A stretch of DNA of 54,459 bases, taken from NCBI GenBank assembly GCA_002373325.1, contig DFKI01000160.1, positions 35,525 to 89,983 on the forward strand, written 5' to 3'. Made by a program: the position numbers and the translations under genes. Positions 21,574-52,228 of this stretch are shown one piece after another. Under the pieces are notes generated by a model. That model was given only the letters and a program-made list of their open reading frames with translations, did no database searches and was not told the origin of the DNA. Numbering within the stretch: position 1 is the stretch's first letter; each line of letters starts with the position of its first letter. Origin of the DNA: Treponema sp. UBA3649 (GTDB taxonomy: Bacteria; Spirochaetota; Spirochaetia; Treponematales; Treponemataceae).

Positions 21574-22032
21574 TTACAAAAAGGCCGTAACCTTATCCAG
21601 AATCAATTCATCTGCAGGTAACCATTTTACGGAATGCAAGTTTTCTCTTGTAAGCCAGACCGCGTTTTCATGCTCAAGCAGCTCCAGTCTTCCGCTAACC
21701 ACTTGGCATGCAAAGCACTTCATTGAAAGATGAAATGTCGGATAATCGTATTCAATCGTGCCAATGCAGTCCCCCACTTTAATTTGTGTGGCAAGCTCCT
21801 CTCGGATTTCACGCTCAAGGGCAGCTTCTGGGCTTTCGCCAGCTTCGATTTTTCCTCCAGGGAATTCCCACCAGCCCTTCCAGTCTCCGTAACCCCGCTG
21901 GGTGGCGAAGACTTGGTTTACATATTCTGAATCAAGTTCAGAATGGCAGCTGTCAGTTTGTCCGTCATGCTGAACTTGATTCAGCATCTTTCGTCTGGTG
22001 ATTATGGAGGCTACGACGTTTATGGTTTTCAT
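21574..22032 (-). CDS. MutT-like Nudix hydrolase with in-frame REP insertion
   Basis: Nudix box GGKIEAGESPEAALEREIREEL; about 19 aa longer in its N-terminal loop than the paralogue at 40483. Confidence 0.9.
   Translation of the reverse strand: MKTINVVASIITRRKMLNQVQHDGQTDSCHSELDSEYVNQVFATQRGYGDWKGWWEFPGGKIEAGESPEAALEREIREELATQIKVGDCIGTIEYDYPTFHLSMKCFACQVVSGRLELLEHENAVWLTRENLHSVKWLPADELILDKVTAFL
21922..21989. repeat. REP-like inverted doublet inside the mutT CDS
   Basis: ATATTCTGAATCAAGTTCAGAATGGC ... GTCATGCTGAACTTGATTCAGCATCT; each is palindromic and they are inverted relative to each other. Confidence 0.85.
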
Positions 22033-28728: not shown

Positions 28729-28944
28729 TTAACACGCTTCCAACATTTTTGAAGCAATCATTTTTTGATACTTATTTATCTTTGCGCAATCATCAAACAA
28801 CTTTTGAATTGCGCTTCTGTTGTTAGGAATATCTTCAAAATATGTTTTAAGAATCTGCTTTACATCGCTTCCATCCGTTTCTGACCAATCTACTGTATAA
28901 AAATCCTCCAACGCTCTTTCAAATGAGTCCTGAAAGTTATTCAT
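28729..28944 (-). CDS. Small hypothetical protein (71 aa)
   Basis: AGGAGG before ATG 28944; the track start at 29004 is less likely. Confidence 0.65.
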   Translation of the reverse strand: MNNFQDSFERALEDFYTVDWSETDGSDVKQILKTYFEDIPNNRSAIQKLFDDCAKINKYQKMIASKMLEAC

Positions 28945-29013
28945 GGTTAAATTCCTCCTATAGTTAGGTTTATTATAAATGTCCAGAGTGTCAATGAATG
29001 ACACTTACAAAAT

Positions 29014-29214
29014 TTATCTTTTCCCTGTATTAAATAATATATTCATCTGCTCCACAAACGCCTGTGCCCCTCCTGCACGAACCATAGGCTCGATGTATTG
29101 AAGAAACTTCCGTTTGTTATTTTCGGATAGTTTATCATATTTTTTGCGAAGTTCCATTGCCTTTATGGAGGCTTCGGTCATAAAGTCAGCGAATTCTTGT
29201 TCTTCTGTGGTCAT
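29014..29214 (-). CDS. Small hypothetical protein (66 aa)
   Basis: GAGGAG just after the upstream stop codon, ATG at 29214. Confidence 0.65.
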   Translation of the reverse strand: MTTEEQEFADFMTEASIKAMELRKKYDKLSENNKRKFLQYIEPMVRAGGAQAFVEQMNILFNTGKR

Positions 29215-29231
29215 TATTCTATATTCTCCTC

Positions 29232-30020
29232 TCAAAATGGAATTTCTTCAGGAAAGTTATCATCGCTATTCATTTGCATATCTTTGGTTTCATCATTTGC
29301 AATTGTTAAATTGAATCGACTTTTATTATTCCTCATCCACGAAAAACCTTTTGTTGTTATCATACATTCGGGACAATTATAAGCATCAAATGATTGCTCT
29401 AAAAAATTTACTTCACATAATTCTTCTAATGCGAAATTAAATGCTAAGCGGTTATAACCAAATCCTTCAAACTTTTCAGCACATAAAGACAGTGAAATTG
29501 AATCCTTTTGCCCAAAAACATTTTCCCCTATAGTTCCTAATAACAACAAAGCTTCATCTGAAATAATACATTCTGATAAAATTTGTCCTGCATTTTCATT
29601 TCCAATAGCAGTTCTTTTTTGTTCAGAAAAATATTTCATCTTAGTCGTTATTTGCGATTTCAATTTTTCAAAATCACTAAGTGAGCCAGTTTTGTAAGAT
29701 ATTATTGAACGTTGTTGAATATCGAACGGATATTTATCTTTTCTTTCATCAGAACAAATCAGTATTGTTCGTTTTTTATATGCGATTGCTAAACCGACTT
29801 CAAACCAAACATTAGGATTGTCTATCGTTATATCTGCAAGAACGGCAGAGGAGGTTCGAATATTATTATCTATGCTATCTATTGGAATTTCTGCAGATAA
29901 GTCTTTGTCTACGCGATATGGGTCATATCCTGCATCAATAATAGCAGGAGAATAAACATCTTTAAAACGTTTATCAAATTTATCATTATCAAAAGGCTGT
30001 ATTACGAAACATCTTTCCAT
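29232..30020 (-). CDS. Nucleoside 2-deoxyribosyltransferase-like (TIR-like fold) domain, putative winged helix, SSB-like acidic tail
   Basis: CFVIQPF, RVD, LADIT..NPNVWFEVGLA, PFDI motifs; ends DDNFPEEIPF. Confidence 0.8.
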   Translation of the reverse strand: MERCFVIQPFDNDKFDKRFKDVYSPAIIDAGYDPYRVDKDLSAEIPIDSIDNNIRTSSAVLADITIDNPNVWFEVGLAIAYKKRTILICSDERKDKYPFDIQQRSIISYKTGSLSDFEKLKSQITTKMKYFSEQKRTAIGNENAGQILSECIISDEALLLLGTIGENVFGQKDSISLSLCAEKFEGFGYNRLAFNFALEELCEVNFLEQSFDAYNCPECMITTKGFSWMRNNKSRFNLTIANDETKDMQMNSDDNFPEEIPF

Positions 30021-30025
30021 AATTC

Positions 30026-32248
30026 CTACTCCTCAAAATCAATCTCAACGTCAGCTTTGTTGTAAATATCAATCTGATTTTCAATGTCAATCTTATTTAC
30101 AATCATACCACGTAGTTGACACAACTGTATGAATTCCTGAATTCTATTTTTCCCATATAATTCTTTTAATGTAAGAACTATACCAAACTTCAAATCTTTT
30201 CCGTATTTTTCAGAAAGCCGCTCTGTAGTTTTTAGGCTTATGCCCCAAGATTTTGTTTTATAGGCTTTTTTAGGACGATGTTTAGTTTCTTCAAATTCTC
30301 CTATATGCTTAACATTATCCCATTTCCTGAACAAATCTCTTGCATTGCTCTCTTTTGTAAAAACGTTGTCAGTTTCATTCTGAAGATTTTCATTTATTGA
30401 TGCTATAGAACCATCATCTTTTATTCTTCCAAAATGCAGATCAAGCTCCGTTGTCGTATAATCTACACCTTGATTCCTAAAACATTTAGGAAAATAGCAT
30501 AAAGTTGCTTTTGCTATGAACGGATGATTGTCATTAATAGCAGGAACAGGAATATTATACAGATATGTGTCCCACTTTTCAGATGTACCACTCAGGAAAA
30601 ATCGAATTTCATCATCTTTAGACTGTAAAATATCAGTAATCTTTACAGGAACAATACCAAATCCAATTTCATAATTAGATGAATTCTGTTTGTTCCAACC
30701 AGCAGCACAATCAATAAGCAATGCCTTTGCGACTTCCCTACTTAATCCTATAACTTGCATCATATAAGCCATTTTTCTTGCAATCCAAGGAGCTGCAAAC
30801 GAAGTTCCAGTTCTGACTACTTTTCCATTTGAAAAATAGACATTCATTTCTTTTGAATCATCTCCACCATAATAACTCACATCTGGTTTTGTAAAGAAAG
30901 ACAGAACTGGGCCTTTTCTTGTATATGAGGCTGGCAGATTATCGAATGACACTGAATTAACGACAATAGAATTGATTGAATCCGCAGGAGAGCCGATTTT
31001 AACCTGATTTTTTGAAGTCTTGTTTGTACCTGCAACAATAAAAATTATATCTGGATAATCATATTGCAGATTATCCAACAAAGCTGCCACAGGCGAAATA
31101 AAATTATCTTCGATTTCAGACTCAGCTCCCAAGCTAAGATTCCATACATGAATGTCTCTATTTGTCTGGACTATATCTCGGATTTGCCGAAGCAAAGTAA
31201 ACACACTGTATTTTTTTCCAGCTGCAACGCCAAAGTGCCTTACGCGAAAACGACCACAGCCATCGTCAATATCTTTGTTTAGCGTTGGCCCATCAACAAT
31301 AATTGAATCCACCATAGTACCATGGTGCTCATCTTCCCAGGTTGTTGTAATATTCGGGTCAACAAGTTTTACATAATCAACCCATTTTGAAAAATAGACA
31401 CTCTTATCAAAAAGTGTGTCTATTACGCCAATAACAGGTTCATTTGTCGGCTCTGGAATAGGAATGTCTTTGTCAATTTCATCGTCTGAAATATCAGCAA
31501 ATACATATTTTGAAAAATCTGGCGTTGCCATTGCAATTAGATATGGCGCACTATTTTTTAAAATAGAATACTGTGTTGGATTTAACAAAAAAGTATTGTC
31601 ATCAAATTTGTTTATATTCAGATAATCCAAATCTATTTTTCTAAAGATTTCTCTATACGGAATTCCAATATCGTACAAAGTTATAACTTGGCTTTCTGTT
31701 AATTCAGGTCTGTCTTTATCAACATCAAGCTTTTCCAGATATACAGAATCTGCAACAATATTGATAAAACAGTTCTTCGACATTACATCCGATTTAAATG
31801 GAATTTCATTGTGCATTATTGCAGAGATTTGCTCATTTGTAAGTTTTCCATCAAAATCATCAATCAAAATACTTATCGCCTCATCAATCATTTTTAATGA
31901 CTCAATGAGAGATTTGTTTTCCATACAATAGGTAATGATATGTTTTGGATCTTTATCTTTGCTGAATTTTGCACCTACGATCAAATCGTTTGTCTTCTTT
32001 CCTTTTTCACTTAAGAGAGATTGAATTCTATTACTTTTTGCTATTACATCTATATAGTAGGCTGTAACCAAGACTTTGTTTATGATTGTGTTTTCTTGCC
32101 AATATTGAACAATAGAATTCAATTCATTTCGCAAGGTTTGTAAATGTGAGGCTTCGACAATTTTGTTTGCAGGAATATGACGTGCAGAAAAGCCACCGGT
32201 ATTTGACTTTTGTTCAAACTCAGCTTTTATTTGAAGGATACTATTCAT
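30026..32248 (-). CDS. S8 subtilisin-like protease, IetS-like
   Basis: Catalytic triad GVIDT / HGTMV / GTSFAAP, NLSLG; no signal peptide; overlaps the ATPase gene. Confidence 0.9.
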   Translation of the reverse strand: MNSILQIKAEFEQKSNTGGFSARHIPANKIVEASHLQTLRNELNSIVQYWQENTIINKVLVTAYYIDVIAKSNRIQSLLSEKGKKTNDLIVGAKFSKDKDPKHIITYCMENKSLIESLKMIDEAISILIDDFDGKLTNEQISAIMHNEIPFKSDVMSKNCFINIVADSVYLEKLDVDKDRPELTESQVITLYDIGIPYREIFRKIDLDYLNINKFDDNTFLLNPTQYSILKNSAPYLIAMATPDFSKYVFADISDDEIDKDIPIPEPTNEPVIGVIDTLFDKSVYFSKWVDYVKLVDPNITTTWEDEHHGTMVDSIIVDGPTLNKDIDDGCGRFRVRHFGVAAGKKYSVFTLLRQIRDIVQTNRDIHVWNLSLGAESEIEDNFISPVAALLDNLQYDYPDIIFIVAGTNKTSKNQVKIGSPADSINSIVVNSVSFDNLPASYTRKGPVLSFFTKPDVSYYGGDDSKEMNVYFSNGKVVRTGTSFAAPWIARKMAYMMQVIGLSREVAKALLIDCAAGWNKQNSSNYEIGFGIVPVKITDILQSKDDEIRFFLSGTSEKWDTYLYNIPVPAINDNHPFIAKATLCYFPKCFRNQGVDYTTTELDLHFGRIKDDGSIASINENLQNETDNVFTKESNARDLFRKWDNVKHIGEFEETKHRPKKAYKTKSWGISLKTTERLSEKYGKDLKFGIVLTLKELYGKNRIQEFIQLCQLRGMIVNKIDIENQIDIYNKADVEIDFEE

Positions 32249-33290
32249 TCTCTGCTACCGCCTGCAACTCTCTAGAAACTTGGCTTTTTGAAATACCCGA
32301 CAATATTTCGATTTCCCTAACAGTGAAGCCTTGTTCTCTCAATTTTACAATATCAATTTCTTTTTCGTGCAACAAATCCTTATAGATTCTTCGCAGGTAA
32401 TCAAATTCGTCGCCAACTTTACTAAATGCAATAGAAGTTTTTATTATGTTTTTCAAATCTCCTGGATAGGGCAGTTCAACTGCTAATTGCATGATTTTCT
32501 TAAAAATTCTTATGTTCTTTCCTGCAAATTTAAATTTATTCAGATAAAAATCTAGTATGACTTCCGATATTTCAATTAAATCTTCTTTTGTATAACGGTT
32601 AAAATCAATAACCTTGTCAAATCTTCTAATCAAAGCCTTATCAAACGAGTCGTATAAATTTGTAGTTGCAATCAAAACAATTTTTTCATTTAAATTATCA
32701 AACCCCTTCAATATGGCCGAAGTTGCTCTGCCCATTTCCCTCAAATCATTGGAATTCGTTCTGTCCATTGCAATTGAATCAATTTCATCAAATAAGATTA
32801 TAATTTTATTCGGCTGCGGAAGTTCATTCATTTGCTTGAACATTTCTGCAATATTCTTTGCAGTTTGTCCAAGTTTACTGTCTATTATTGATTCAAAATC
32901 AACAAAAAATAATTCTCTGTCAAGGATTCTTGCCATTTGCTTTGCAGATTCCGTTTTTCCAGTACCAGGTGCACCATAAAATAAATATTTATTTATTCCG
33001 ACATTGTGAGCTATTGCATTTGCAATACCTACCAAATCGTCTTTTATAGACTCAGGAAGAGGAAGCGGTTCCTGATTTATTGGCATTTTTCTAAAGAAGG
33101 AATTATCTGTTTCCGTCATTTGTGGCATAAAAGTATTGGTACTTGAAAGTTGAGCCATTATATACTCTGCTAATTGAAAATCTCCGGCAGCATCGAAATC
33201 TCTGGCAATCTCATAAGCCTCATTTCTAAAGGCACTGTCATTTTTTTCAGAGTAATATTTTATTAAGTTAAGGATATTCTTTTTCTTCAT
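32241..33290 (-). CDS. AAA+ ATPase, IetA-like, with C-terminal HTH
   Basis: GAPGTGKT, LFDEID, ATTNL..DKALIRRFD; C-terminal GFTVREIEILSGISKSQVSREL. Confidence 0.9.
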   Translation of the reverse strand: MKKKNILNLIKYYSEKNDSAFRNEAYEIARDFDAAGDFQLAEYIMAQLSSTNTFMPQMTETDNSFFRKMPINQEPLPLPESIKDDLVGIANAIAHNVGINKYLFYGAPGTGKTESAKQMARILDRELFFVDFESIIDSKLGQTAKNIAEMFKQMNELPQPNKIIILFDEIDSIAMDRTNSNDLREMGRATSAILKGFDNLNEKIVLIATTNLYDSFDKALIRRFDKVIDFNRYTKEDLIEISEVILDFYLNKFKFAGKNIRIFKKIMQLAVELPYPGDLKNIIKTSIAFSKVGDEFDYLRRIYKDLLHEKEIDIVKLREQGFTVREIEILSGISKSQVSRELQAVAENE

Positions 33291-34507: not shown

Positions 34508-35905
34508 ATGTTAGTAAATTTCAGCGTCACCAATTTTTTGTCCTTTAACCAGAGGACCACCTTCAAGATGGAAATCGGGCGCGTCACAAAAAAACTTGAA
34601 CACATACTTGAAGACAGAGACACAGGAAAAAGCCTTTTGAAGTTTTCCGCCATGTTCGGAAAAAATGGAGCGGGAAAGACAAACTTTGTCAGGGCCATGG
34701 CAATCTTGAGGAACTTCGTGCTTGCAGGAAGACTACCCCAAAGGGCACCAGATCTTTGGTGCAAAATCGATGACGAAAACAAAGGCAGACCTACGGATTT
34801 TGAAATCACATTTATCGCAGACAAAAATCTTTACGAATACAGAATCTCCCTTGTGCTTGCGACAGGAATCATAACGAAAGAAGAATTGGTTCATGTTGTG
34901 GGAAACCGGCATACAAAACTCTTCTATAAAGAAAGCTCCGAAAGCCCTTACGTTTTTCACCATTCAATAAAAGGACAAAACAAGGACATTGAGGTTTTGA
35001 GCCGCACTTTTGCTCTTAGCGGAAGTCCTTTTTTGTTCAGCAGCAACCACAACACCGACGGATTTTTTGCCACGAACCCTCAGGCAATTCCCCTTCAAAA
35101 GGCGTTTCTCTGGTTCAAGGACACACTCGAAGTGATTTTCCCCGACCAGCCCTTGCAGGAAACTTCTTTGCTCCGGTATGAAATCTGCAAGGATGAGTTC
35201 GCCCAGCTGCTGAAAGATTTTGACACGGGAATAGAAAAAATAAATCTTGATCCCGTAAGCAAGGAAAAGGTCTTTGAGAATTTGGATTTACGCACCCAGC
35301 AGAAGCTGAACCTTGAGATGGCTTTGGTTAGTCCGCTTGTAAAGTTTTCCAGTCTTCAGGAGAAATTGGGAATGCCCCAGAAACAGGGATTGCAAAATGC
35401 CGGATTCTATTCAAGTGTAATCCGCAGCCGGAGGAACATTTTTATCATCACACTAGAAAAAGACGGTGATTTTCATTTTTATGCGGTAAAATTCGTACAC
35501 AATCTTGGCGGAAAGGAAATCGAGTTCAGCATGGAAAGCGAGAGCGACGGAACACATAGACTCTTCCAGCTTTTGGAAATCCTCATCTGCAAAAAGGAAA
35601 AGGTATACATCATGGACGAAATCAACCGAAGCCTGCATCCGAAGCTGACCGTACAGTTTGTAAAGAAATATTTTTCAAATGCGAAAGACAGGAGAATCCA
35701 GCTTGTAACAACAACCCACGAAAGCCGTATCATGAGCCACGACCTCGTGAGACGGGACGAAATCTGGATTGCGGACAAAAACGAAGACGACAGCACGAAG
35801 CTTTTCAGCCTTGAGGACGAGCAGGTCCGCATAGACAAGGTGCTTGACCAGAACTACATGGACAACGTATGGGGCGGAGTACCGGTTTTTAAGGATGAAG
35901 AATAG
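34508..35905 (+). CDS. RloA/AbiLi-like ABC-type (AAA_21) ATPase
   Basis: NFLSF, GKNGAGKTN, ESDGT, MDEINRSLHP, TTHE, RRDEIW. Confidence 0.85.
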   Translation: MLVNFSVTNFLSFNQRTTFKMEIGRVTKKLEHILEDRDTGKSLLKFSAMFGKNGAGKTNFVRAMAILRNFVLAGRLPQRAPDLWCKIDDENKGRPTDFEITFIADKNLYEYRISLVLATGIITKEELVHVVGNRHTKLFYKESSESPYVFHHSIKGQNKDIEVLSRTFALSGSPFLFSSNHNTDGFFATNPQAIPLQKAFLWFKDTLEVIFPDQPLQETSLLRYEICKDEFAQLLKDFDTGIEKINLDPVSKEKVFENLDLRTQQKLNLEMALVSPLVKFSSLQEKLGMPQKQGLQNAGFYSSVIRSRRNIFIITLEKDGDFHFYAVKFVHNLGGKEIEFSMESESDGTHRLFQLLEILICKKEKVYIMDEINRSLHPKLTVQFVKKYFSNAKDRRIQLVTTTHESRIMSHDLVRRDEIWIADKNEDDSTKLFSLEDEQVRIDKVLDQNYMDNVWGGVPVFKDEE

Positions 35906-38525: not shown

Positions 38526-38562
38526 TAACCTACAGTTTTATCACCCGACGAAATGTATCTTG

Positions 38563-39021
38563 TTTATGCGGTAAAATTCGTACACAATCTTGGCGGAAAG
38601 GAAATCGAGTTCAGTATGGAAAGCGAGAGTGATGGAACACATAGACTCTTCCAGCTTTTGGAGATACTCATCTGCAAAAAGGAAAAGGTATACATCATGG
38701 ACGAAATCAACCGAAGCCTGCACCCAAAGCTGACCGTACAGTTTGTAAAGAAATATTTTTCAAATGCGAAAGACAGGAGAATCCAGCTTGTGACCACCAC
38801 CCACGAGAGCCGTATCATGAGCCACGACCTCGTGCGACGGGACGAAATCTGGATTGCGGACAAAAACGAAGACGACAGCACGAAGCTTTTCAGCCTTGAG
38901 GACGAGCAGGTCCGCATAGACAAGGTGCTTGACCAGAACTACATGGACAACGTGTGGGGCGGAGTACCGGTGTTTAAGGATGGGGAATAGACAGAGCCGA
39001 AAGTTTTGCGTTATTTACGCA
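38563..39021 (+). pseudogene. Direct repeat copy 2: 3' fragment of the RloA-like ATPase gene
   Basis: Lacks Walker A; nearly identical to 35478-35936. Confidence 0.9.
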
Positions 39022-40482: not shown

Positions 40483-40887
40483 ATGAAAACCATAAACGTA
40501 GTAGCAGCAATAATAATCCGCGCAACGGAGGACGGAACAAAACAAGTCTTCGCAACCCAACGCGGCTATGGTGACTGGAAGGGCTGGTGGGAATTTCCCG
40601 GCGGAAAAATCGAAGAAGGTGAAAGTGCGGAGGACGCGCTCAAACGCGAAATAAAAGAAGAGCTTGCAACAGAAATAAGCGTGGGCGATTACGTTGACAC
40701 CATCGAATACGACTACCCTGCCTTTCATCTTTCCATGAGATGCTATGAGTGCTCCGTCATAAGCGGAAAGCTGGAGCTGTTGGAGCACGAAAACGCAAGC
40801 TGGCTCACGAAAGAAAACCTCCGCTCCGTGCAATGGCTCCCGGCAGACATTACGATTTTGGACAAGGTGGAAAAAAACCTCCTCTAA
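40483..40887 (+). CDS. MutT-like Nudix hydrolase
   Basis: GGKIEEGESAEDALKREIKEEL. Confidence 0.92.
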   Translation: MKTINVVAAIIIRATEDGTKQVFATQRGYGDWKGWWEFPGGKIEEGESAEDALKREIKEELATEISVGDYVDTIEYDYPAFHLSMRCYECSVISGKLELLEHENASWLTKENLRSVQWLPADITILDKVEKNLL

Positions 40888-40905: not shown

Positions 40906-41703
40906 TCAAAAAGTAGCCTCAACCATCTCCCGCATCCTTCTTGCATTCTTTGCCCCGCTGCCCTTGGGATGATTGTTGAAGTACATCTGAACTTTCTTTC
41001 CCTCGCCGTTTGCCTGCCTTACGATTGGGACAAAACTTGAAAGCTCGTCGTCGGAGTATTCGTAGCAGTAGCGTGAGCTTCCGTTTTGACCTTCGGCATC
41101 ATACCAGGCATTTTCATTTCGTCCGTGCATTCGGATGTATGCGCTGCTTCCGACAAACGGAGTCTTTGTCAAAGTTCCGTCGGGAAGATTTTTCAGCTGA
41201 GGCATGTCACAAAACACGATTGACGCATTCCGTTTCTCAAGCCCCTCAAAAACCGACTCTCGTATCCATTCCCTGTGGCGAAACTCAATCACCGCAGGAA
41301 ATCCGTCAAACTCGGAGATAAGTTTTGCAAGGTAGATTCTGTTTTCCTTTGTGTAATGAAAGCTCTGGGGAAACTGAAAGAGAAGAGCCGAAAGCCTGTC
41401 CTTTTCGTAAAGTGGATTCAGTGCCGATTTCAAATCCTCCGCCGCCGTCTGCCAATTTGAGTCAATCTCATGGGTAAGGAGCCTGATTGCCTTTATGCTG
41501 AAATTCAATCTTCCCTCGGACCGCTCGTAAAAAGAAATCAGCCTCTCCGCCGTGGGCATGTCGTAAAACGTGCTGTTCACTTCAAGCGCGTTAAAAACGG
41601 TGGAATAATATGGAAGAAAATCTTTTCGCTTTAAGTCCTCGGGATAAAAAACACCCTTCCACTCCGGGTAGTCGTAGCCGCTTGTGCCGATGAGATTTGT
41701 CAT
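40906..41703 (-). CDS. DUF72 (YecE-like) protein
   Basis: IGTSGYDY..W..FYP, EVNSTFY, LFQFPQSF, EFRH, YIRMHGRN, YFNNH. Confidence 0.9.
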   Translation of the reverse strand: MTNLIGTSGYDYPEWKGVFYPEDLKRKDFLPYYSTVFNALEVNSTFYDMPTAERLISFYERSEGRLNFSIKAIRLLTHEIDSNWQTAAEDLKSALNPLYEKDRLSALLFQFPQSFHYTKENRIYLAKLISEFDGFPAVIEFRHREWIRESVFEGLEKRNASIVFCDMPQLKNLPDGTLTKTPFVGSSAYIRMHGRNENAWYDAEGQNGSSRYCYEYSDDELSSFVPIVRQANGEGKKVQMYFNNHPKGSGAKNARRMREMVEATF

Positions 41704-42932
41704 AAAGATTCCTTCCAGCTGACAGTTTCCTGCTCAAGCTTGCAGTTATTTTTTAGCATGTAATTCATAATATCAGAATACTTGTTTTTCGAAATGAGAG
41801 TCTCAGCCTTTTTTATATCATTTGCCTCAAGCTGTTTTGTAAAAACAGAATATTTTTCAAGTTCAGGGATTCCCATTTTATATGATTTGAAATCTATCTG
41901 CGTTTTTGAGCGAAGATTTTCCAAAATAAAAAATCCGTCCGGGTCAATGTCGCCAAAATGAAAGTATTCTTTACTTTGGTTTTGCAAATGGATTTTCTTC
42001 AAAAAATTTTGCTTTGCGCTGTTGTGGTAGCCCGACAAAAAAATCAGAAACGTATCTGGATTTTTCATTCTGTTGAAAGAAGTAAGGTTTTCAACCGTCA
42101 TGATTTTTGAATCTTCTATTTCAAAAGACTTTATCAGATTTATGGAAGAAGATGAAAGCGCAAGGGGAATGTCTGAAGAAAGATTAAGAATGTTCCCATT
42201 TTCAAAAATAATATTTCCCTTTCCCTTAAAATACACATAGGTCGGATTCGCAAAAATATTACATTCTTCAAGAATAACTTTGCCTGCCTCTTTTTCATCG
42301 GCACAGTTTTCTATTGAAGAATCAAAACGTCCGCTTCTCCGCAAGATTTTTAAGACCTTGCTTTTGTATTTTGTCTCCCATGTTTTTGAATTTGCCAAAA
42401 CTGATATGGAAAGTTCCCGCTCAAGGATCTCGCTTTTGTTCTGCAATATGAATATCAAAAGAGAAATGATATTCTTAGCTTCTTCCTGAATGAATTCTGC
42501 TTTCTTTCCAGACCCAAGGCGTTCTACCTGTTGTTTGCAAAAGTCTTTTACAATCTGAGGCAAACTTGAATCATCACAATATTCGGAATAAAAAGAGATT
42601 TCCTCCCCTACCCTTGTGTTCTTATCTTTTACGCCAAGAACCGTCCGGATTGCATTCCAGTTTTCTTCGTTTGCTACGGCAGTTATTTTTGCGATTCTTT
42701 CGTATTTCCAATCAACTTGAACAAAATTCTCTGACTCAAGCAGGCGGCATTGTTTTTCAAAATCTTCAATTTCATTTATATCGGCAGAATCCTTTTCATA
42801 AGACTTGAACACATCAGACGGCTTTATGGAAAAGCTCTGCGTAACGGCATTTTCACCTTTGTAGGTTTTGCTTGATTCGTATTTGGTGAGTAGCTTTTGT
42901 AATATTTGTTTTTGAACGTTTGAATAAATCAT
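41700..42932 (-). CDS. jetD: Wadjet nuclease JetD (Toprim)
   Basis: TVENLTSF, GYHNS, HFGDIDPDGF, KLEQE; follows the SMC-like gene. Confidence 0.88.
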   Translation of the reverse strand: MIYSNVQKQILQKLLTKYESSKTYKGENAVTQSFSIKPSDVFKSYEKDSADINEIEDFEKQCRLLESENFVQVDWKYERIAKITAVANEENWNAIRTVLGVKDKNTRVGEEISFYSEYCDDSSLPQIVKDFCKQQVERLGSGKKAEFIQEEAKNIISLLIFILQNKSEILERELSISVLANSKTWETKYKSKVLKILRRSGRFDSSIENCADEKEAGKVILEECNIFANPTYVYFKGKGNIIFENGNILNLSSDIPLALSSSSINLIKSFEIEDSKIMTVENLTSFNRMKNPDTFLIFLSGYHNSAKQNFLKKIHLQNQSKEYFHFGDIDPDGFFILENLRSKTQIDFKSYKMGIPELEKYSVFTKQLEANDIKKAETLISKNKYSDIMNYMLKNNCKLEQETVSWKESL

Positions 42933-45900
42933 CGTGAATGCCAGCTTCCTTCCACAGGCTTTGTGTATTTCCCCTGAGTGTAAAGAGAAACCGTATTGTC
43001 AATGTGTTGGCCTATGCTGTTGATTTTTTCGGGTGGTGCCGCATAGAAAACCTGGAAGTTGTTGTCCTCTAAAAATTTTACCATCTGTTCGATTCGCTCT
43101 TTTGACAATGCGGAAAAAGCTTCGTCAATAAACGCAATGCGTGCGCAACACACGTCTTTTGGATAAAACTGCATCAGGCTTGCCGCAAGCACGATAAAGT
43201 ATGGAGTCTGTTTTTCACCGCCAGAAGCAGAGCCTTGCTTTTTGGACAAATCCATTTCAGATTCCTCATCGCCAATGTGACTTCTGATTGTCATGTCGTA
43301 AGTAAAATAGTTACGGTAATCCGAATAATCTTCTTCCTGCTCCGTATCAAGGATTTTGTTCAGGAAGGACTGAACGTCATCTGCAAGCTTTTCATCAGAC
43401 ACTGTGCGAACTGTAAATAAATCCGGACTTTCCGAATACAACTCAAGATTCTTACAAATTGTAAAGAAAACCTGTCTGTCAGATTTTTCTTCCATCTTGA
43501 ACTGATAAATATCCCTACCAAATGGAATACGTTTTAGTTCTGAATTGATTGCGGCAATTTCTTCTTTTGCGGAAATTATTTTTTCGTTAAGTTCTGCAAC
43601 AAAATCATGCAGGAAAACGTCCCTAAGTTTTTCCGACTGTTTTTCGACCTTATTTTTTGCCTCGTCAATTTTAACATTTGCCACATCACGGTAACGGTCG
43701 CGGTAAAACGAAATAAACTCTACGCCATAATTTGAAGAATCAATTTCAGAAAGAAGATTGTAGTCACGCTGCCTGTCTTCCATTTTTCTTTTTGCGTCAT
43801 CAACAGCAGTTTTCAACTCATTCAGACGTTTTTCGCCAATAATTATAAACGTATTCCTCTGTTTGCTTGCCCGCTCATATTCATCTTTCATTTCATCAAC
43901 TAATTCCGGATGTTGTCCTGAGATTTCTTTATATTCATCTTCATACTTTTTTGATTCTTTAATTTTCTCAGATATCTCTTTCTCCTTATTTTGGATTGCA
44001 GTCCTTACCGAAGCTCGTTTATCTGCAACATCTATATCAGATTCATATGCCTGATCATAATTTGATTTTGCAATTTCATATTCTTTTGCCGCAGCCAGCA
44101 TCTCGGGACTGTTTTTTAATTCATCAATCTGGGCAGAAAGTTTCCCGAAGTTTTTATTCTCTTCCAAAAGTTCTTTAGCGCAATCAAAATTGTAACGCTC
44201 AACCTTCCATTCAACATTGTCGATTAGCTTTACAAACTGATTTCGGTTTTGCAGTTCCTTTTCATATCCTGACTTTTCAAGATTCAATTCTTCCTCTTCC
44301 TTTCGGGCCTGCTCCAGCTGAATCTTTACCACATTGTTACCCAAGCACAGTGATGTCTTTTGAATCTGCATTTTGCTTGCCGCATAACTTTTGCAAAGCA
44401 TGCCGTCTTTTGTAATTCCACCCTTGGAATATTTATGAAGCTCATCAAGATTCTGGCAGAGATGAATTCCATTTAAAAGATAATTTGCGTAATGTCGGGC
44501 ACCTTTGTTTGTGATATTCAAAACAGAAGCGGCAGAGTTTTCTTCAATTTCCGTCTCTGGGATTTTATCTGTCAGGACAACGCTTGTCTTATAAATATTT
44601 TTTTCATTCAGAGTTTTTAACGCCTCATGGCAATAGTGGTCGTCCACAATGATGTTAAATCGCTTGTTCCATAAAAATGTTTCTATCGCTTTACGCCAAC
44701 TCTCATCGCTCAACGATTCCACAAGCTCAGCAAAAAAACGGACAGGTGATTTTATTCCACGCTTGTCAAACTCATTTTGAATAATCCGTTTAGCCTCTTC
44801 CGCCTCCTGAGGGAACTGCACAATGTTCGATTCCAGATTCTTAATCCGTTTTTGAACTTCTGTTATTTTGCCCGCCACGTCATAAAGCTTATCTTTTATG
44901 CGGCCATTTTCTTCTACGAACAGATCACGCTGATTTTTTATCTTGTTTGAAAAATCAATGAATGTTGAAATCTTTTTATCGGACTCAAAATCACTTTCAC
45001 TCAGATTTAAGAGAATCGTTTTGCTGGCATCAGGAATCGCAAAATATTCGTCAATCTGAGGAAGAATCACTTTGAGCGAAATCTGGAGATTCTTTAGCTG
45101 AACCAGCTCCTTTTCCAAGCCGTCAATTTTTTCCTTGATTTCATCCCGGTCCCTTTCCATTTTTTCAAGGCTTTCTGCAATTGAATGGTTTTTGTTTTCC
45201 ACATCAGAAAGGCGTTTCCTCATTTCTGAGAGGTTTGCCTCGCTTTCTTTTTTCTTTTTCTCCAAATCTTTCAGCTGAATTTGATTGTTCTGAAGATCTA
45301 TTTCCAGCTTTGAAATTTCATCTTTGTATTGATTTATATACTGGTAGCGGAACATCAGCTCGCGGATATTATAATTGCGAAGAACTTTTTCGTAGTCACG
45401 TGTCTTTTCTTCAATCTCCTCAAGAAGTTTTTTTCGTTCCTGAATCTGCTCGAACATCTCCTTTGCCTGATCGTAAAGCTTACGCTGCTCTCGAAGCCGG
45501 TCAAGGGATTTTACTTCTGCCTCTGCAAAAACCGAAGTCTGCAAGAATTTATCCACATTGCGCTCTGGGTCAAAGGCCATCATTTTAAGGAGCTTTTCCT
45601 TATACTTCCTGTAATCCGTTGTCCTAATTCCAAGTTGGCGGGTCAACTGGGGAATTGCTTTTTCACGACCAAGGAAGTCTGCTCCTTTTAGTGGAATGTT
45701 TTTGAATGTCAGGTTATTTTTTGCAGTTACGATCAGCTTTCCCTTTTCTACCGAACTAAAATTGAAATCCTCAAGGCGGCATTTTTCGCGGATAATCCAC
45801 TGGCTGATTGCCCTATCACTTTCCGAGCGGGATTCAATGCAAACTGCAATCACATGGTAATCAGAAATAAGCGGGTCAAAAAATTCCATTGCGATGTAAG

Positions 45901-46174
45901 AAGTAACGCTTCCCGGACGAAGATATCTGTCAGAGCCGTTTGTCTTTCTGTCTCCGTGGATATATGCTGTAACGTTTCTTCCATTGTCGTCAGCCGCTTT
46001 GTTAAACTGTGTGTTGGCCGTAATCAGATAGCTCATCGCATCAAGAATCGTAGTCTTTCCAGTACCGTTTACTCCAGTAAAAAGTGTGGAACTTCCCAAA
46101 GAGATTTTTTCATTTTGAAAGCATGACCAGTTTACAAGAAGCAGCCGTTTGGCGGTTTTGCGGTTATCTTTCAT
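42929..46174 (-). CDS. jetC: Wadjet SMC-like ATPase JetC
   Basis: LVNW, GVNGTGKTT, long coiled coils with hinge, DYRNYF, SGGEKQ, FIDEAF. Confidence 0.9.
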   Translation of the reverse strand: MKDNRKTAKRLLLVNWSCFQNEKISLGSSTLFTGVNGTGKTTILDAMSYLITANTQFNKAADDNGRNVTAYIHGDRKTNGSDRYLRPGSVTSYIAMEFFDPLISDYHVIAVCIESRSESDRAISQWIIREKCRLEDFNFSSVEKGKLIVTAKNNLTFKNIPLKGADFLGREKAIPQLTRQLGIRTTDYRKYKEKLLKMMAFDPERNVDKFLQTSVFAEAEVKSLDRLREQRKLYDQAKEMFEQIQERKKLLEEIEEKTRDYEKVLRNYNIRELMFRYQYINQYKDEISKLEIDLQNNQIQLKDLEKKKKESEANLSEMRKRLSDVENKNHSIAESLEKMERDRDEIKEKIDGLEKELVQLKNLQISLKVILPQIDEYFAIPDASKTILLNLSESDFESDKKISTFIDFSNKIKNQRDLFVEENGRIKDKLYDVAGKITEVQKRIKNLESNIVQFPQEAEEAKRIIQNEFDKRGIKSPVRFFAELVESLSDESWRKAIETFLWNKRFNIIVDDHYCHEALKTLNEKNIYKTSVVLTDKIPETEIEENSAASVLNITNKGARHYANYLLNGIHLCQNLDELHKYSKGGITKDGMLCKSYAASKMQIQKTSLCLGNNVVKIQLEQARKEEEELNLEKSGYEKELQNRNQFVKLIDNVEWKVERYNFDCAKELLEENKNFGKLSAQIDELKNSPEMLAAAKEYEIAKSNYDQAYESDIDVADKRASVRTAIQNKEKEISEKIKESKKYEDEYKEISGQHPELVDEMKDEYERASKQRNTFIIIGEKRLNELKTAVDDAKRKMEDRQRDYNLLSEIDSSNYGVEFISFYRDRYRDVANVKIDEAKNKVEKQSEKLRDVFLHDFVAELNEKIISAKEEIAAINSELKRIPFGRDIYQFKMEEKSDRQVFFTICKNLELYSESPDLFTVRTVSDEKLADDVQSFLNKILDTEQEEDYSDYRNYFTYDMTIRSHIGDEESEMDLSKKQGSASGGEKQTPYFIVLAASLMQFYPKDVCCARIAFIDEAFSALSKERIEQMVKFLEDNNFQVFYAAPPEKINSIGQHIDNTVSLYTQGKYTKPVEGSWHSR

Positions 46175-46902
46175 CAGTCTTCATCTCCTCTTTCAATCTC
46201 AATATCAATGGGATCACTCTCTACCTCGACAGACTCGCTATCCCCCAAGCCGTCAAGTTCATCAGGCTCCTGCTCATCATCGATTCCCTTCATCTTCTTT
46301 TCCGCGTCTTTTACAAAGGAAACAAATTCACTTTCGTTAAGGGCAAACTGTAGCGACGGATAAAGTATGATCGTAAAATCTTCTTCCCCTATTTCGCCGC
46401 TGGTCCCAATCAAGTTGAACTTGCAGAAGAGCTTTAGGATGTCACCAAGAGGTCCTTTGTCAAAATTTTTCTTGTAGTCATATTTTTCAAGCTCCATATT
46501 CAAATCTGACAAAGTAATTTTGATAACTTTATCCAAAGAACCGCGATGCAGCCTGTCTGAAAGTAAAGTCCACAAACAGCACAAAACAATGCTTTCAATT
46601 TTTCTAAAGCGAAAACGGTTTACGGCTACTGTTGCGGAAATGTTTTCATTCACCAAATTTGAAAGCATGATTACGCCGGAATCTTTTTGAACAAGGACTT
46701 CAAATCCCATAAAAGAAAAGTAGTGGGAAAAGAAATCTGAGTTTTTTGAAACAAAATAAAACATCTTTCGGTTCTCTTCGTCTTTATCACGGACAATGAA
46801 AGTTTTTTTTAGAAGATTGCGGGCACATTTCTGAAAAGTTTGTTTTTCGCCGGATGTAAATTCAGTATTCCAGTATTCGTCAACAGATTCATTATTTGTC
46901 AT
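46174..46902 (-). CDS. jetB: Wadjet JetB (DUF4194-like)
   Basis: Size, position between jetA and jetC, ESIVLCCL and ILYPSL motifs, acidic tail. Confidence 0.8.
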   Translation of the reverse strand: MTNNESVDEYWNTEFTSGEKQTFQKCARNLLKKTFIVRDKDEENRKMFYFVSKNSDFFSHYFSFMGFEVLVQKDSGVIMLSNLVNENISATVAVNRFRFRKIESIVLCCLWTLLSDRLHRGSLDKVIKITLSDLNMELEKYDYKKNFDKGPLGDILKLFCKFNLIGTSGEIGEEDFTIILYPSLQFALNESEFVSFVKDAEKKMKGIDDEQEPDELDGLGDSESVEVESDPIDIEIERGDED

Positions 46903-48283
46903 TCTTTTTTGCCCTCCAGTGCTTTGTCACAAAGTTTTCGCTTTCAATATATGTTTCATCGCTTTCTATGGAGTAGCCGTTTTCTTTTGCATAACTAACT
47001 GCAGCGAGAGATTTTAAAATATCGTCCTTGCTTGAATAATCAAAAGTACTGTTATCGATTATTTCGTTCTGGGCGAACAAGTCATCCATATATTTTTTCA
47101 TTTCGTCTTTTGAATATGGATTGTGGGATTCCTGCTCAAGAATGTATTTTTGTTTTTCAAGTTCTTCCTTTGTCAACTCAAAATAATCGGACTCCGTATT
47201 GTGCAAAACCTGCTGGCTTTTGTGGGGATACATAAGGGAAGATTGGTCAATATATTCATATTTCTGGATATTAAACAAAGCTCCGGCCTCATCCTTTTCT
47301 GCAATATTTTCTGAAGAAATCAAAATCCGAAGCGTCTGCTCAACCACACCACGGATATCAAGTCCCTTGTTTCTAAGCATTCTCTCCCTAGCTATGGCAA
47401 TATGGATGTAGGTGTTAATCTTTTGCTTTATGTCATCCATGATTTTGTTGTAGTCATCGTGAAGAAATTTTTTTGTGGAATCAATCATCTCATAGATTCG
47501 TTCCTGAGCTTCCATTTTTGAAATCAGATTTTTATGAGCCTTTTCCTCCGCTTGCAATTCATCGCAAAGCAACAAGAACAAATCAGGTGATTTGAGTTCT
47601 TCAAGTTTTCTGGTGATAAAGTTTCTGTAAATATGAATGTTCTGCTGATGAACAAGTCTGGAATACTCCTTTATAAAATCGCCGTCACAGTAAGAAATGA
47701 TATTCTCCGTAAGGCTTTCAAGGCTTCCCTCGTGATTCATCTTTTCGATAATCCTTTTGATTGAAGTGGACAGTTTTTTCAGTGACGAAGAGAGAGACTT
47801 TGCGTCTGAAAAAGTTGGTTTTAGAATAAAGTTATATAGTTCCTGTTTGTTTTCGTATTCTTTTGAATTAAAACGGTTATAAATGTTGAGAATGTAATTT
47901 GAAAATTCTGGAGTAGTAGGATTCTTTAATTTTTGTAAAAACTCTGCCAATGCAATTCCATTGTCAGTCATTATAATATATTTTTCAAAAGTGGAATCAT
48001 CCTGATATTCTTCAAGCCAGCCAACAGAAATAAACTTCCGCAAAACAAAATTAGCTTCATCATTTCCCGCATTCGCCGTGTTTTCTTCATCTGACAAATC
48101 AAGATGGTTTTCCAATAAAAAAGCTGCCAGCACATCCCGCAGATAAGAACGTTCAAGTCGTCCGGAAATTTCTTTGTCATTTTGATTATGTATTAATTCC
48201 AGGCAGTCCGCATAGATACGGCTGTTGCTTATTCCTGAGAGGCAGTTAAAAAAATCGGATGGAATTATGTCAAAGACATTCAT
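46892..48283 (-). CDS. jetA: Wadjet JetA (DUF5716-like)
   Basis: FDIIPSDFFNCLS..N..IYADCL, GWL motif; first gene of an overlapping operon. Confidence 0.8.
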   Translation of the reverse strand: MNVFDIIPSDFFNCLSGISNSRIYADCLELIHNQNDKEISGRLERSYLRDVLAAFLLENHLDLSDEENTANAGNDEANFVLRKFISVGWLEEYQDDSTFEKYIIMTDNGIALAEFLQKLKNPTTPEFSNYILNIYNRFNSKEYENKQELYNFILKPTFSDAKSLSSSLKKLSTSIKRIIEKMNHEGSLESLTENIISYCDGDFIKEYSRLVHQQNIHIYRNFITRKLEELKSPDLFLLLCDELQAEEKAHKNLISKMEAQERIYEMIDSTKKFLHDDYNKIMDDIKQKINTYIHIAIARERMLRNKGLDIRGVVEQTLRILISSENIAEKDEAGALFNIQKYEYIDQSSLMYPHKSQQVLHNTESDYFELTKEELEKQKYILEQESHNPYSKDEMKKYMDDLFAQNEIIDNSTFDYSSKDDILKSLAAVSYAKENGYSIESDETYIESENFVTKHWRAKKNDK

Positions 48284-50011: not shown

Positions 50012-50452
50012 TTATTTCTGCACCATCTTAACCGTTTGCTCATCCATCTCGCCGCCAAAATATTTATCCAGCACAGCCTTGAACACCCGAGCTTCCTTTT
50101 CGTATTTTGAATCATGTCCAGAAGCAAGCAAAAAGAGCGTCATGGAAGATTTTAGCTTCAAGTCATCGGGATAACCCATCACCTGAGTTGCGTTGTTTGA
50201 CTCAAGGGCAAGGAGGCTTTCAGAAATTTCCACCAGATGCGAGCGAAGCAGATCGTCCGCAAGATATTCCCGCGCTTCTTCAATTCCTTTGATTCCATAG
50301 TACTGTGAAATCTCACTGAATCCAAGGCCCTCCAGCTGGGGGAATATGTACCACATCCAGTGGCTTTGTTTTTGTCCGCTGCGGATTTCGGCAAGGGCAG
50401 TTTCGTAGTCGAGTTCCTGTTTTTTTTTGAATCGGGTTAGGTCGTGGGGCAT
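50012..50452 (-). CDS. DUF1810 family protein
   Basis: ALAEIRSGQKQSHWMWYIFPQ, PDDLKLKSSMTLF. Confidence 0.9.
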   Translation of the reverse strand: MPHDLTRFKKKQELDYETALAEIRSGQKQSHWMWYIFPQLEGLGFSEISQYYGIKGIEEAREYLADDLLRSHLVEISESLLALESNNATQVMGYPDDLKLKSSMTLFLLASGHDSKYEKEARVFKAVLDKYFGGEMDEQTVKMVQK

Positions 50453-51837
50453 AGGGGTCTCCTTAGCTTGCTCTCAATTAATCTCATGTGCTCTATAAAA
50501 TCGGAATAATTCTCTTTAGTGGGAATGGGAATTCCGTAAGTTGCAATTTGTCCGCCATAGCCATAAAGATTTTTGGGCTTACTGATTATGATTTCTGGAT
50601 TATTTCTTTTATCAGCTTTGTCGTAGGGATAAATAAGCCCTCCCTGCTTAGCCGGCAAAATGTACATGTATGTGATTAGCTGATGCAAATCATCTCTTGA
50701 AAAACATCCGCTAATTTCGTCACTGTCCGGCCTATGATTATCAAGATGTTTATATTTTGCATCAAGCACAAAATTTGATTCTGACGTTTGCAATCTTTCC
50801 ATCTGCTTTCCCTTGTAAAAATCTGGATAGCGGGGATTTCCATCATAAACTTTTATTGCTCCATCGGCAGCTTTGTTTCTCGGATGCTTGAATCCCGCCG
50901 GAACTAGAATCGTCGCCAAATATTCTTCCCAAAGCCATGCGCCGTCAAAGAGAATTCCGTATGCTTTGTTTTTTGAATTCCCATAGCCGATTTTCTTGTG
51001 GCGCAAAATTGAAAGGCAGAGATTTTGGAGCGGCTTATAGGCTGTGTAATAGGGATGGGTTATGGGCTTAAGATTTTGTGCAATCACTTTTTCGCGATTG
51101 TGGATGTCATAGCTTTGCGTTGCCTCTATGATTTCCTGCACACAGATTTTTGTCTCAGGGTCATTGGCTAGAATATCTTTTGCGAACGTCTTTGTCCTAA
51201 TATATTCGATTGTGTGGCGGATAAGTTCTGTTACAGGATTGTCAAAACTACACTCCCGGCTCTTATATGCAATTTTTCCGCCAAAGGGAATGTTCTGTCT
51301 GATGTGACGGCTAACATCAATTGCACCCTTCACATTTGCGTCGTTTCGGTTAAAGGTCTGATACTGCCTAAAGATTCCCTGGGCAAGTGCCTTTTTCAAA
51401 AGCAGGGGAAAGGCGAACATTAATAAGTCAAGCTGGCCGTCATTTGAGGTTGAATGTTCCCAGTCAAATAGATTTATGGAAAAAACTTTTTGCAGCATGT
51501 AATGAAGAAAATAATCGCTCTTGTCGTCAGAAGAAAAACGCGATGTGATTTTTAGCTGTGTTCCTCCGATTCCAATAAAGCCCATTAGGTTGCCGGTCTT
51601 AAGCAGAACATTTTCCAGCTTTTCAGAATCCCCATGCAGATTGAAAATTTCCTGCTCCTCGATGCCGTCGTCATGCGCGCCCAACACTTGCGGAAAAATC
51701 AAAAGGGCCGGATTAATTTTTGCAAGCTCTGCAATCGGTGTGTTGGCAATTTTTGACAGGTTCTGATAGTCGCGGTCAGTTCCGCCCAAAGATGTAAAAC
51801 TCGCTCCACAGTTATTGTCGGTTGTATTAAGATTCAT
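50437..51837 (-). CDS. mcrC: McrC-like restriction nuclease subunit
   Basis: TGNLMGFIG, DNPVTELIRH, LFDGAWLWEEY, YPDFY, LDAKYK, DLHQLITYM. Confidence 0.88.
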   Translation of the reverse strand: MNLNTTDNNCGASFTSLGGTDRDYQNLSKIANTPIAELAKINPALLIFPQVLGAHDDGIEEQEIFNLHGDSEKLENVLLKTGNLMGFIGIGGTQLKITSRFSSDDKSDYFLHYMLQKVFSINLFDWEHSTSNDGQLDLLMFAFPLLLKKALAQGIFRQYQTFNRNDANVKGAIDVSRHIRQNIPFGGKIAYKSRECSFDNPVTELIRHTIEYIRTKTFAKDILANDPETKICVQEIIEATQSYDIHNREKVIAQNLKPITHPYYTAYKPLQNLCLSILRHKKIGYGNSKNKAYGILFDGAWLWEEYLATILVPAGFKHPRNKAADGAIKVYDGNPRYPDFYKGKQMERLQTSESNFVLDAKYKHLDNHRPDSDEISGCFSRDDLHQLITYMYILPAKQGGLIYPYDKADKRNNPEIIISKPKNLYGYGGQIATYGIPIPTKENYSDFIEHMRLIESKLRRPLCPTT

Positions 51838-51870
51838 AAGTGCTATATTGACAATAAATCTGAAAGTGCG

Positions 51871-51927
51871 CTAGAAATTTCCATAGGCCAAACCAAAATC
51901 AACCCACCAAATCTCACCACGTGTCAT
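51871..51927 (-). pseudogene. Truncated PemK/MazF toxin N-terminus
   Basis: MTRGEIWWVDFGLAYGNF then stop; start overlaps the end of the upstream gene. Confidence 0.75.
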
Positions 51928-52168
51928 CTTTTAATGCCTCCCACATTGTACGCATGGACGAATGTGCAATAGCGAGTTGTTCCTCGGCAGGAATCTTGTC
52001 ATATACAGCATTTATACGCTCAACCTCGGCCATATCAACTTCGGAATCATTTTGAGAAGTTTTCTTTTTTGCCAGTAAAGCCTTTACCTTTTCAAAAATA
52101 CCTTCCAATGCAGGAACATCAAGTTTATCAAGTTCGGAATTAAAATATGCATAAGCAAAATCTGACAT
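51914..52168 (-). CDS. Putative antitoxin of the lost PemK/MazF toxin
   Basis: 84 aa, own TGnTATAAT and GGAGG; acidic end MWEALKDDTW overlaps the toxin start. Confidence 0.7.
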   Translation of the reverse strand: MSDFAYAYFNSELDKLDVPALEGIFEKVKALLAKKKTSQNDSEVDMAEVERINAVYDKIPAEEQLAIAHSSMRTMWEALKDDTW

Positions 52169-52228
52169 AATTTACCTCCGTGTCCATTATAGCACTATAT
52201 TTGTTTTTTTGCTTTATTTTATTTACTT

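Follow-up and report, generated by a model that had tools for sequence, protein, structure and literature searches.

The gene and its surroundings

The window, by which we mean the whole stretch of 54,459 nucleotides analysed, carries a gene for a protein (P0001) that combines a predicted N-glycosidase-fold enzyme domain, a winged helix and a C-terminal peptide resembling the tip of SSB, the host protein that binds single-stranded DNA (Table 1). Its translation starts with MERCFVIQ, contains NPNVWFEVG and ends in DDNFPEEIPF directly before the stop codon. The initial annotation had described an N-terminal NDT/TIR-like domain with a conserved Glu, a probable winged helix, a linker and the DDNFPEEIPF end, and all of these elements were confirmed, with the gene lying on the minus strand. 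A contig from another study's DNA run (X4) spans positions 29155-29604 with 0 differences, confirming the tail and the stop codon, and the junction between the gene and ietS was bridged by another independent DNA contig. Among the contig pieces listed from RNA runs none lay over the gene, which carries no weight either way. A promoter scan was overall at chance level (19 vs 22.6). Within the 90% cluster of P0001, FPEEIPF was kept in 12 other full-length members, while one ended in FPEEISF. In that variant, P0395, the penultimate Pro is replaced by Ser, the same change as in E. coli ssb-113, which weakens partner binding; it may be an assembly error.

Table 1. Features of the P0001 locus and of a related gene in another genome
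Feature	Position	Strand	Basis or remark
Gene for 262-aa NDT/DRHyd - winged helix - SSB-tail protein (P0001)	29232..30020	minus	One 262-codon ORF and independent DNA contigs
NDT/DRHyd N-glycosidase-fold domain, residues 1-136	29613..30020	minus	Conservation, AlphaFold model, fold matches
Glu74, predicted catalytic nucleophile	29799..29801	minus	Aligns with Glu of Rcl/DNPH1 GYELG motif; 87/87 members
MarR/PadR-type winged helix, residues 148-237	29310..29579	minus	Profile match E 8e-5, fold match Z 11.5
Variable linker, predicted disordered, residues 238-255	29256..29309	minus	Model and alignment
C-terminal heptapeptide FPEEIPF, copy of host SSB tip	29235..29255	minus	Host FSEDIPF; genus FPEDIPF
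GAGGAG ribosome-binding site	30029..30034	minus	Sequence; within last codons of upstream ietS
ietA-ietS pair directly upstream, context only	30026..33290	minus	Probably co-transcribed with P0001 gene here
Second NDT/DRHyd family gene	L204:1489-2334	plus	Same-genus genome G229, inside type I restriction locus

The gene follows ietS at a distance of 5 nt and is part of a low-GC island. ietAS-like DNA was found without this gene in two other genomes (G079 and G129), and none of 120 neighbours of 61 homologue loci gave an Iet match. P0001 was rejected as a component of ietAS because its linkage to ietA and ietS was not kept at these loci. Downstream of the gene, also on the minus strand, lie two small ORFs without annotation (29014-29235 and 28729-29004). 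They were rejected as partners since the 91-residue downstream ORF was found, at 94% identity, in genome G128 without the P0001 gene.

The low-GC defence island (window positions 22056-54459) includes an LlaJI-type R-M system with two cytosine methylases, ietAS, an AbiLi-like ATPase, an EcoRII-type R-M system, Wadjet jetABCD (41700-48283), two PDC-S01-type ATPases and, by inspection, an McrBC-like pair at 50437-53863. Beyond the EcoRII-type R-M pair there is a near-exact repeat of the 3' end of the AbiLi-like ATPase gene (34508-35905 and 38553-38990), as if a direct repeat flanked this cassette. Two related MutT/Nudix genes (21574-22032 and 40483-40887) flank the left part of the island.

The GC content of the gene is 0.31, compared with 0.47 for the genome, and at 64 of 68 loci the homologue had a lower GC content than the flanking DNA. 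Searches of 201 genus and 401 phylum genomes each gave 2 with a full-length copy, this genome being one of the two. In a GTDB search 578 of 600 candidate stretches were confirmed and the best 80, from many phyla, were kept as loci. A plasmid search at 1e-20 gave no match to the gene, GenBank phages gave one partial match, and IMG/VR yielded seven full-length loci, six of them with a PF end.

Neighbouring genes were scanned at 61 of the 80 loci (120 of 282 candidates, mostly the nearest on each side) and compared, at a PADLOC threshold of 1e-20, with 119 control genes taken from 20 regions chosen arbitrarily in the same genomes. Defence genes were more frequent among the neighbours (22/120) than among the controls (7/119; Fisher p=0.005), the counts being 20 and 3 after housekeeping matches were removed by eye, and a defence neighbour was found in only 17 of 61 loci once two housekeeping matches were dropped. 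No recurring partner gene or regulator was seen among the loci examined, and many copies lie alone between housekeeping genes, for example aspS-apt, uvrB, parC and nrdJ, indicating that the gene behaves as a single mobile gene. In three Methylophilaceae (L031, L047 and L065) aspS and apt flank a solitary homologue, which suggests a stable insertion site; the tails of the three range from an exact host copy to degenerate.

Enzyme domain and winged helix

The Pfam NDT profile PF05014 matched P0001 alone weakly (E 0.0012, 19.4 bits, under the curated cut-off of 28.8), and all 87 aligned members matched it weakly at E<=0.05, with a best E of 1e-6. Across these 87 members the invariant residues of domain 1 were F5, Q8, F10, D11, R36, D38, P69, N70, W72, E74, G76, R93, P98, F99 and D100. 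The predicted role of Glu74 as the catalytic nucleophile is taken from NDT/DNPH1 chemistry. The AlphaFold model of P0001 (87 sequences) had a pLDDT of 87, with a flavodoxin-like five-stranded alpha/beta domain 1 whose closest fold was DNPH1 (Z 15.1, rmsd 2.2, 124 aligned). Further matches were NDT 7o62 (Z 13.7), MilB (Z 13.4-13.6) and TIR domains (up to Z 13.2-13.4). In this model the fold of domain 1 leans to NDT/DNPH1 rather than TIR, TIR folds scoring about 1-2 Z below DNPH1. Hydroxymethyl nucleotides are substrates of DNPH1 and MilB and are used by some phages. P0001 has the same fold as NDT, DNPH1 (Rcl) and MilB (Z 13-15) and the Glu of their xxxVx[YF]ELG motif, but it is only 9-17% identical to them, carries an extra winged helix and tail, and has NPNVWFE and PFDIQH motifs of its own.

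A phmmer search with P0001 alone against PDB gave no match, NCBIfam contained no family naming it, and the atlas entry of one homologue consisted of unnamed clusters only. No defence family in PADLOC or NCBIfam spanned the whole protein; PADLOC gave only a partial match to a CBASS TIR effector, PDLC00733, which weakly matched the enzyme domain (E 4e-8) in 87/87 members, and the CAP12 TIR profile was matched by 8 of the 87. Although the fold is related to that of CBASS/Pycsar TIR effectors, neither a sensor domain for cyclic nucleotides nor a neighbouring cyclase was seen at P0001 or the homologue loci, and membership of CBASS was rejected for this reason.

The winged helix was net acidic in 87/87 members (mean -5.4). 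Ordinary DNA binding is therefore improbable and, judged from its sequence, the domain is probably not a DNA binder. Residues ~241-262 formed a low-confidence coil in the AlphaFold model (pLDDT 56-65), and the linker after the domain had a median of 23 residues among homologues.

The succession of an NDT-like domain and a winged helix, with one catalytic Glu, is shared with the effector of retron Ec86 (Eco1), which was described as NDT + wHTH with catalytic E106 (bioRxiv 2023.08.16.553469, in part) and as acting in defence through NAD+ depletion (review PMC13276650, in part). P0001 differs in having no reverse transcriptase (RT) or ncRNA partner, in its acidic domains and in the SSB tip at its end. 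No RT motif was found in the window, and RT genes near 4 of the 80 homologue loci (one being L062) were of different kinds. No retron-effector profile of NCBIfam or PADLOC matched at E<=0.01, and Ec86-type effectors were not listed in the fold searches. Retron membership was rejected because no retron RT is adjacent.

These results also bear on the improbable case that P0001 is not anti-phage at all, being instead an accessory enzyme that acts in nucleotide sanitation or DNA damage, or else a selfish addiction gene, with a tail that joins the repair network. DNPH1 is a sanitising enzyme, and both the many homologues between housekeeping genes and the lack of a PADLOC or NCBIfam defence family covering the whole protein would suit such a role. 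However, DRHyd domains are described as immune effectors acting as NADases or on nucleotides (PMC9503650, in part). The CBASS effector profile match in all 87 members likewise argues for defence, as does the very patchy, low-GC distribution, with no fixed partner or regulator and with enrichment beside defence genes.

The C-terminal tail and the host SSB

A simple script called 2,272 complete ORFs in this genome; only 6 of them end in PF, and an acidic xxIPF end was present in only two, the P0001 gene and ssb, so that the tail is not a chance feature. Bacterial SSBs recruit partner proteins via an acidic tail ending in IPF (DDDIPF in E. coli), and this tip is an essential docking hub of bacterial genome maintenance. 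The likeness to an SSB tail put forward in the initial annotation held for the genome's own protein: the main SSB ends in GFSEDIPF, with which FPEEIPF of P0001 is identical at 5 of 7 positions, and 23 of 30 genus SSBs end in FPEDIPF. A second SSB of this genome (G000:C24:2458-2859) has a divergent tip, GEEMVF, and is similar in kind to the second SSB of G001 (SEPVF). The P0001 tail resembles the SSB C-terminus in its acidic residues, the [ILV]-Pro-Phe-COOH end, the disordered linker and host specificity over ~7 residues. Unlike SSB, P0001 has no OB fold in its model, and its tail is carried by a predicted toxic enzyme; PF00436 found only two loci in the genome, neither of them P0001.

A homologue search with the protein, tail included, found 1,161 sequences, of which the best 120 were listed, and a profile search at E<=1e-30 gave 550 clusters (50% identity), of which the best 150 were listed. 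A PF end was present in 100/119 of the best-listed homologues, 120/150 of the best-listed profile clusters and 67/80 of the best GTDB loci, the last including three broken or cut genes; because the search queries contained the tail, the ranking may slightly favour tailed members. The expectation that the tail would be conserved while the linker varies was borne out, since the top-residue fraction was 0.63 in the last seven columns compared with 0.25 in the linker, and the tail was kept among homologues at ~35-45% overall identity while the adjoining linker was unconserved. From these alignments the tail is a real, strongly selected feature of an unnamed family.

Roughly a sixth of the homologues have no PF end but retain the NDT site, and no such tail was found on eight more distant NDT-domain proteins. 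Natural tail-less controls are provided by full-length members whose sequence ends directly behind the winged helix or without PF, namely L219 (= P0017, Leptospira biflexa), L008, L070 and L079; L070 has no PF end although its host SSB ends in DDDIPF. Tail-less members show that some lineages can do without the tail.

The search for host SSBs covered 78 of the 80 host genomes and, together with the window's own, gave 79 rows. Twelve of these were left out, 11 for want of a complete SSB with a PF end and one because of a broken gene, so that 67 pairs remained. For hosts with several PF-ending SSBs the best match was taken, in real and shuffled data alike. Identity between tail and SSB at positions -3 to -10 was 3.25 compared with 2.13 after shuffling (p=1e-4, 67 pairs), and same-position identity within taxon groups was 3.28 compared with 2.96 (n=54, p=0.002). 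The match persisted without the unpublished genome G031. Identity over the last seven residues was at least 6 in 23 of 67 pairs (4.4 expected) and complete in 7 of 67 (0.6 expected), although some pairs may be wrong because many hosts are metagenome bins. Identical ends of protein and host SSB include FDDMDDDIPF, FDDFEDDIPF and SDLDDEIPF; in Bacteroidota 8 of 9 members end in LPF, as do their hosts. Many tails match their host only in the generic acidic-IPF/LPF/VPF part. Of the 10 closest homologues 8 carry the end F[PS]x[DE]xPF; it recurs in 1 of the following 109, a fragment whose end is that of P0011, and in none of 148 others.

In a tree built without the tails the phyla were mixed (29 changes, against a minimum of 13 and 39.9 in shuffled data). 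Among 29 disjoint sister pairs drawn from 59 PF-ending rows of this tree, 18 had tails that fitted their own host better, 5 went the other way and 6 were tied (one-sided p=0.005), a count that also uses unsupported branches. A stricter treekit test restricted to starred branches had three independent pairs and was not significant.

Synonymous codons at matching residues were identical in 161 of 362 cases, compared with 152 expected. This agreement at chance level indicates that the match is kept by selection on the peptide and not by recent copying, and recent DNA capture from the host ssb was rejected overall, since codon identity with it was not above chance and the 3' flanks showed none. 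In the seven longest matches identical codons were mildly in excess (38/63 vs 28.6), as could result from shared codon bias. It is also very improbable that a single ancient capture of the 3' end of an ssb gene left the tail behind as a neutral relic: the absence of tails in about a sixth of members would fit a relic, but its persistence at an overall identity where the adjoining linker has diverged, its change with the host and the missing codon or flank identity with host ssb all speak against it.

The same kind of tail is found in a second NDT family, which shares the enzyme domain (HH probability 99%) but has an all-beta middle domain, 115 of 120 homologues ending in xPF. That both families have this end despite their different middle domains would be expected if the tail were a self-ligand, its terminal Phe and carboxylate completing or plugging the NDT site of the neighbouring subunit until SSB tails exposed in phage replication displace them; the NDT of Lactobacillus does have a catalytic residue, the C-terminal Tyr157, that comes from the adjacent subunit (PMC9570332, in part). 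Yet a ligand of the enzyme's own site need not follow the host SSB over seven residues, the tail is unstructured in the monomer model, and neither the eight distant NDT-domain proteins nor the tail-less members possess such an end. We regard the self-ligand as quite unlikely.

A proposed decoy for phage proteins or a possible link to host partners

As the tail is host-matched over ~7 residues on a mobile, predicted toxic enzyme, it most likely binds proteins that are tuned to the host SSB tip. Recognition of SSB by its partners involves burial of the terminal Phe and binding of both the carboxylate and the acidic residues (PMC10164576, in part), and Redbeta binds SSB-C7, the last seven residues of the host SSB (PMC13490951, in part). 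Our preferred reading, to which we give slightly less than an even chance, is that P0001 is an anti-phage trap encoded by a single gene, its enzyme being switched on when phage binders of SSB tails grab the tail copy. The tail would dock in the same pockets as the SSB C-terminus, and oligomeric phage annealing proteins of the Redbeta/RecT type, or other SSB-tail binders abundant in infection, would cluster P0001. Clustering might then license the NDT active site for hydrolysis of NAD+ or (deoxy)nucleotides, leading to cell arrest as for the Ec86 effector. P0001 would thus be an abortive-infection effector built like that of Ec86, with an SSB-tail decoy in place of msDNA. A phage could presumably not evade the bait without losing SSB binding, and the bait would have to be re-tuned after each transfer because the phage binders would be tuned to the host SSB tip.

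A constitutive copy of the SSB tail would, however, meet host SSB partners as well, and a decoy must ignore them. Host matching of the tails is predicted equally if P0001 is an anti-phage effector whose tail docks on the host SSB partners (RecG, PriA, RecQ, RecO, RarA, exonucleases), which we consider unlikely but the strongest competitor of the decoy. As a tether, the tail would hold the enzyme at replication or repair sites, where it would cut nucleotides made during infection, and DNPH1 and MilB as best fold matches agree with this docking. As a guard, a host partner would hold the enzyme off and release it when phage SSBs with tails of their own compete; phage SSB-like proteins with DDIPF tips are reported to trigger DRT4/DRT10 (bioRxiv 2026.10.27.754916 and 2026.04.29.721553, both in part). 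The host genome encodes PriA, RecO, RecQ, RarA and RecG, the recognition features cited above are those that partners read, and the median linker length resembles the minimum of 11-20 residues given for the SSB linker (PMC10164576, in part). On the other side, a free tail would compete with abundant tetrameric SSB and localise poorly, tail-less members survive, and in the second NDT family the tip follows directly on a beta-strand with only ~4 free residues. We favour the decoy for phage binders over the host tether or guard, then the non-defence role, then the self-ligand.

Baits that mimic the normal ligand of a phage protein and so trip an effector are described for Hailong and for the DRT9 cDNA decoy (PMC13276650, in part); those are DNA, whereas the bait proposed for P0001 is a seven-residue peptide fused to the effector. 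Phage and prophage SSB-like proteins with DDIPF tips (Bas 0087, DUF669) resemble P0001 in that the host's SSB tip is copied onto a foreign protein, but they are viral ssDNA-binding proteins, while P0001 is a host-side enzyme without an ssDNA-binding fold. In the literature searched, SSB-tip copies were described only on such proteins (PMC13687109, bioRxiv 2026.10.27.754916 and bioRxiv 2026.04.29.721553, in part), and PMC8744291 and bioRxiv 2026.10.19.760177 (in part) contributed nothing further. No defence effector with an SSB-tip copy was found in this literature, which included few subscription papers.

It is somewhat more doubtful, though still plausible, that the SSB tip serves in general as a portable integrated decoy, a seven-residue peptide that is re-tuned for each host on toxic enzymes (here two NDT families) so that any phage recombinase or replication protein grabbing SSB tails trips the alarm. 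If the decoy holds, P0001 would be a variant of the NDT-type effector that senses phages by a new principle: its peptide would serve as bait, imitating a hub of protein interactions which phages cannot help binding. The widespread unnamed family, with its 550 clusters and host-matched tip, offers a precise and cheap test of the coupling between effector and hub, for which Redbeta-type annealing proteins are the named candidate trigger. Host-matched tails may also explain host limits on recombineering, and a non-SSB protein ending in its own host's SSB heptapeptide would be a simple rule for finding new defence genes. Within the second NDT family, the treponeme-type end F[PS]x[DE]xPF was present in 7 of 120 homologues, some of them ending in FPEDIPF.
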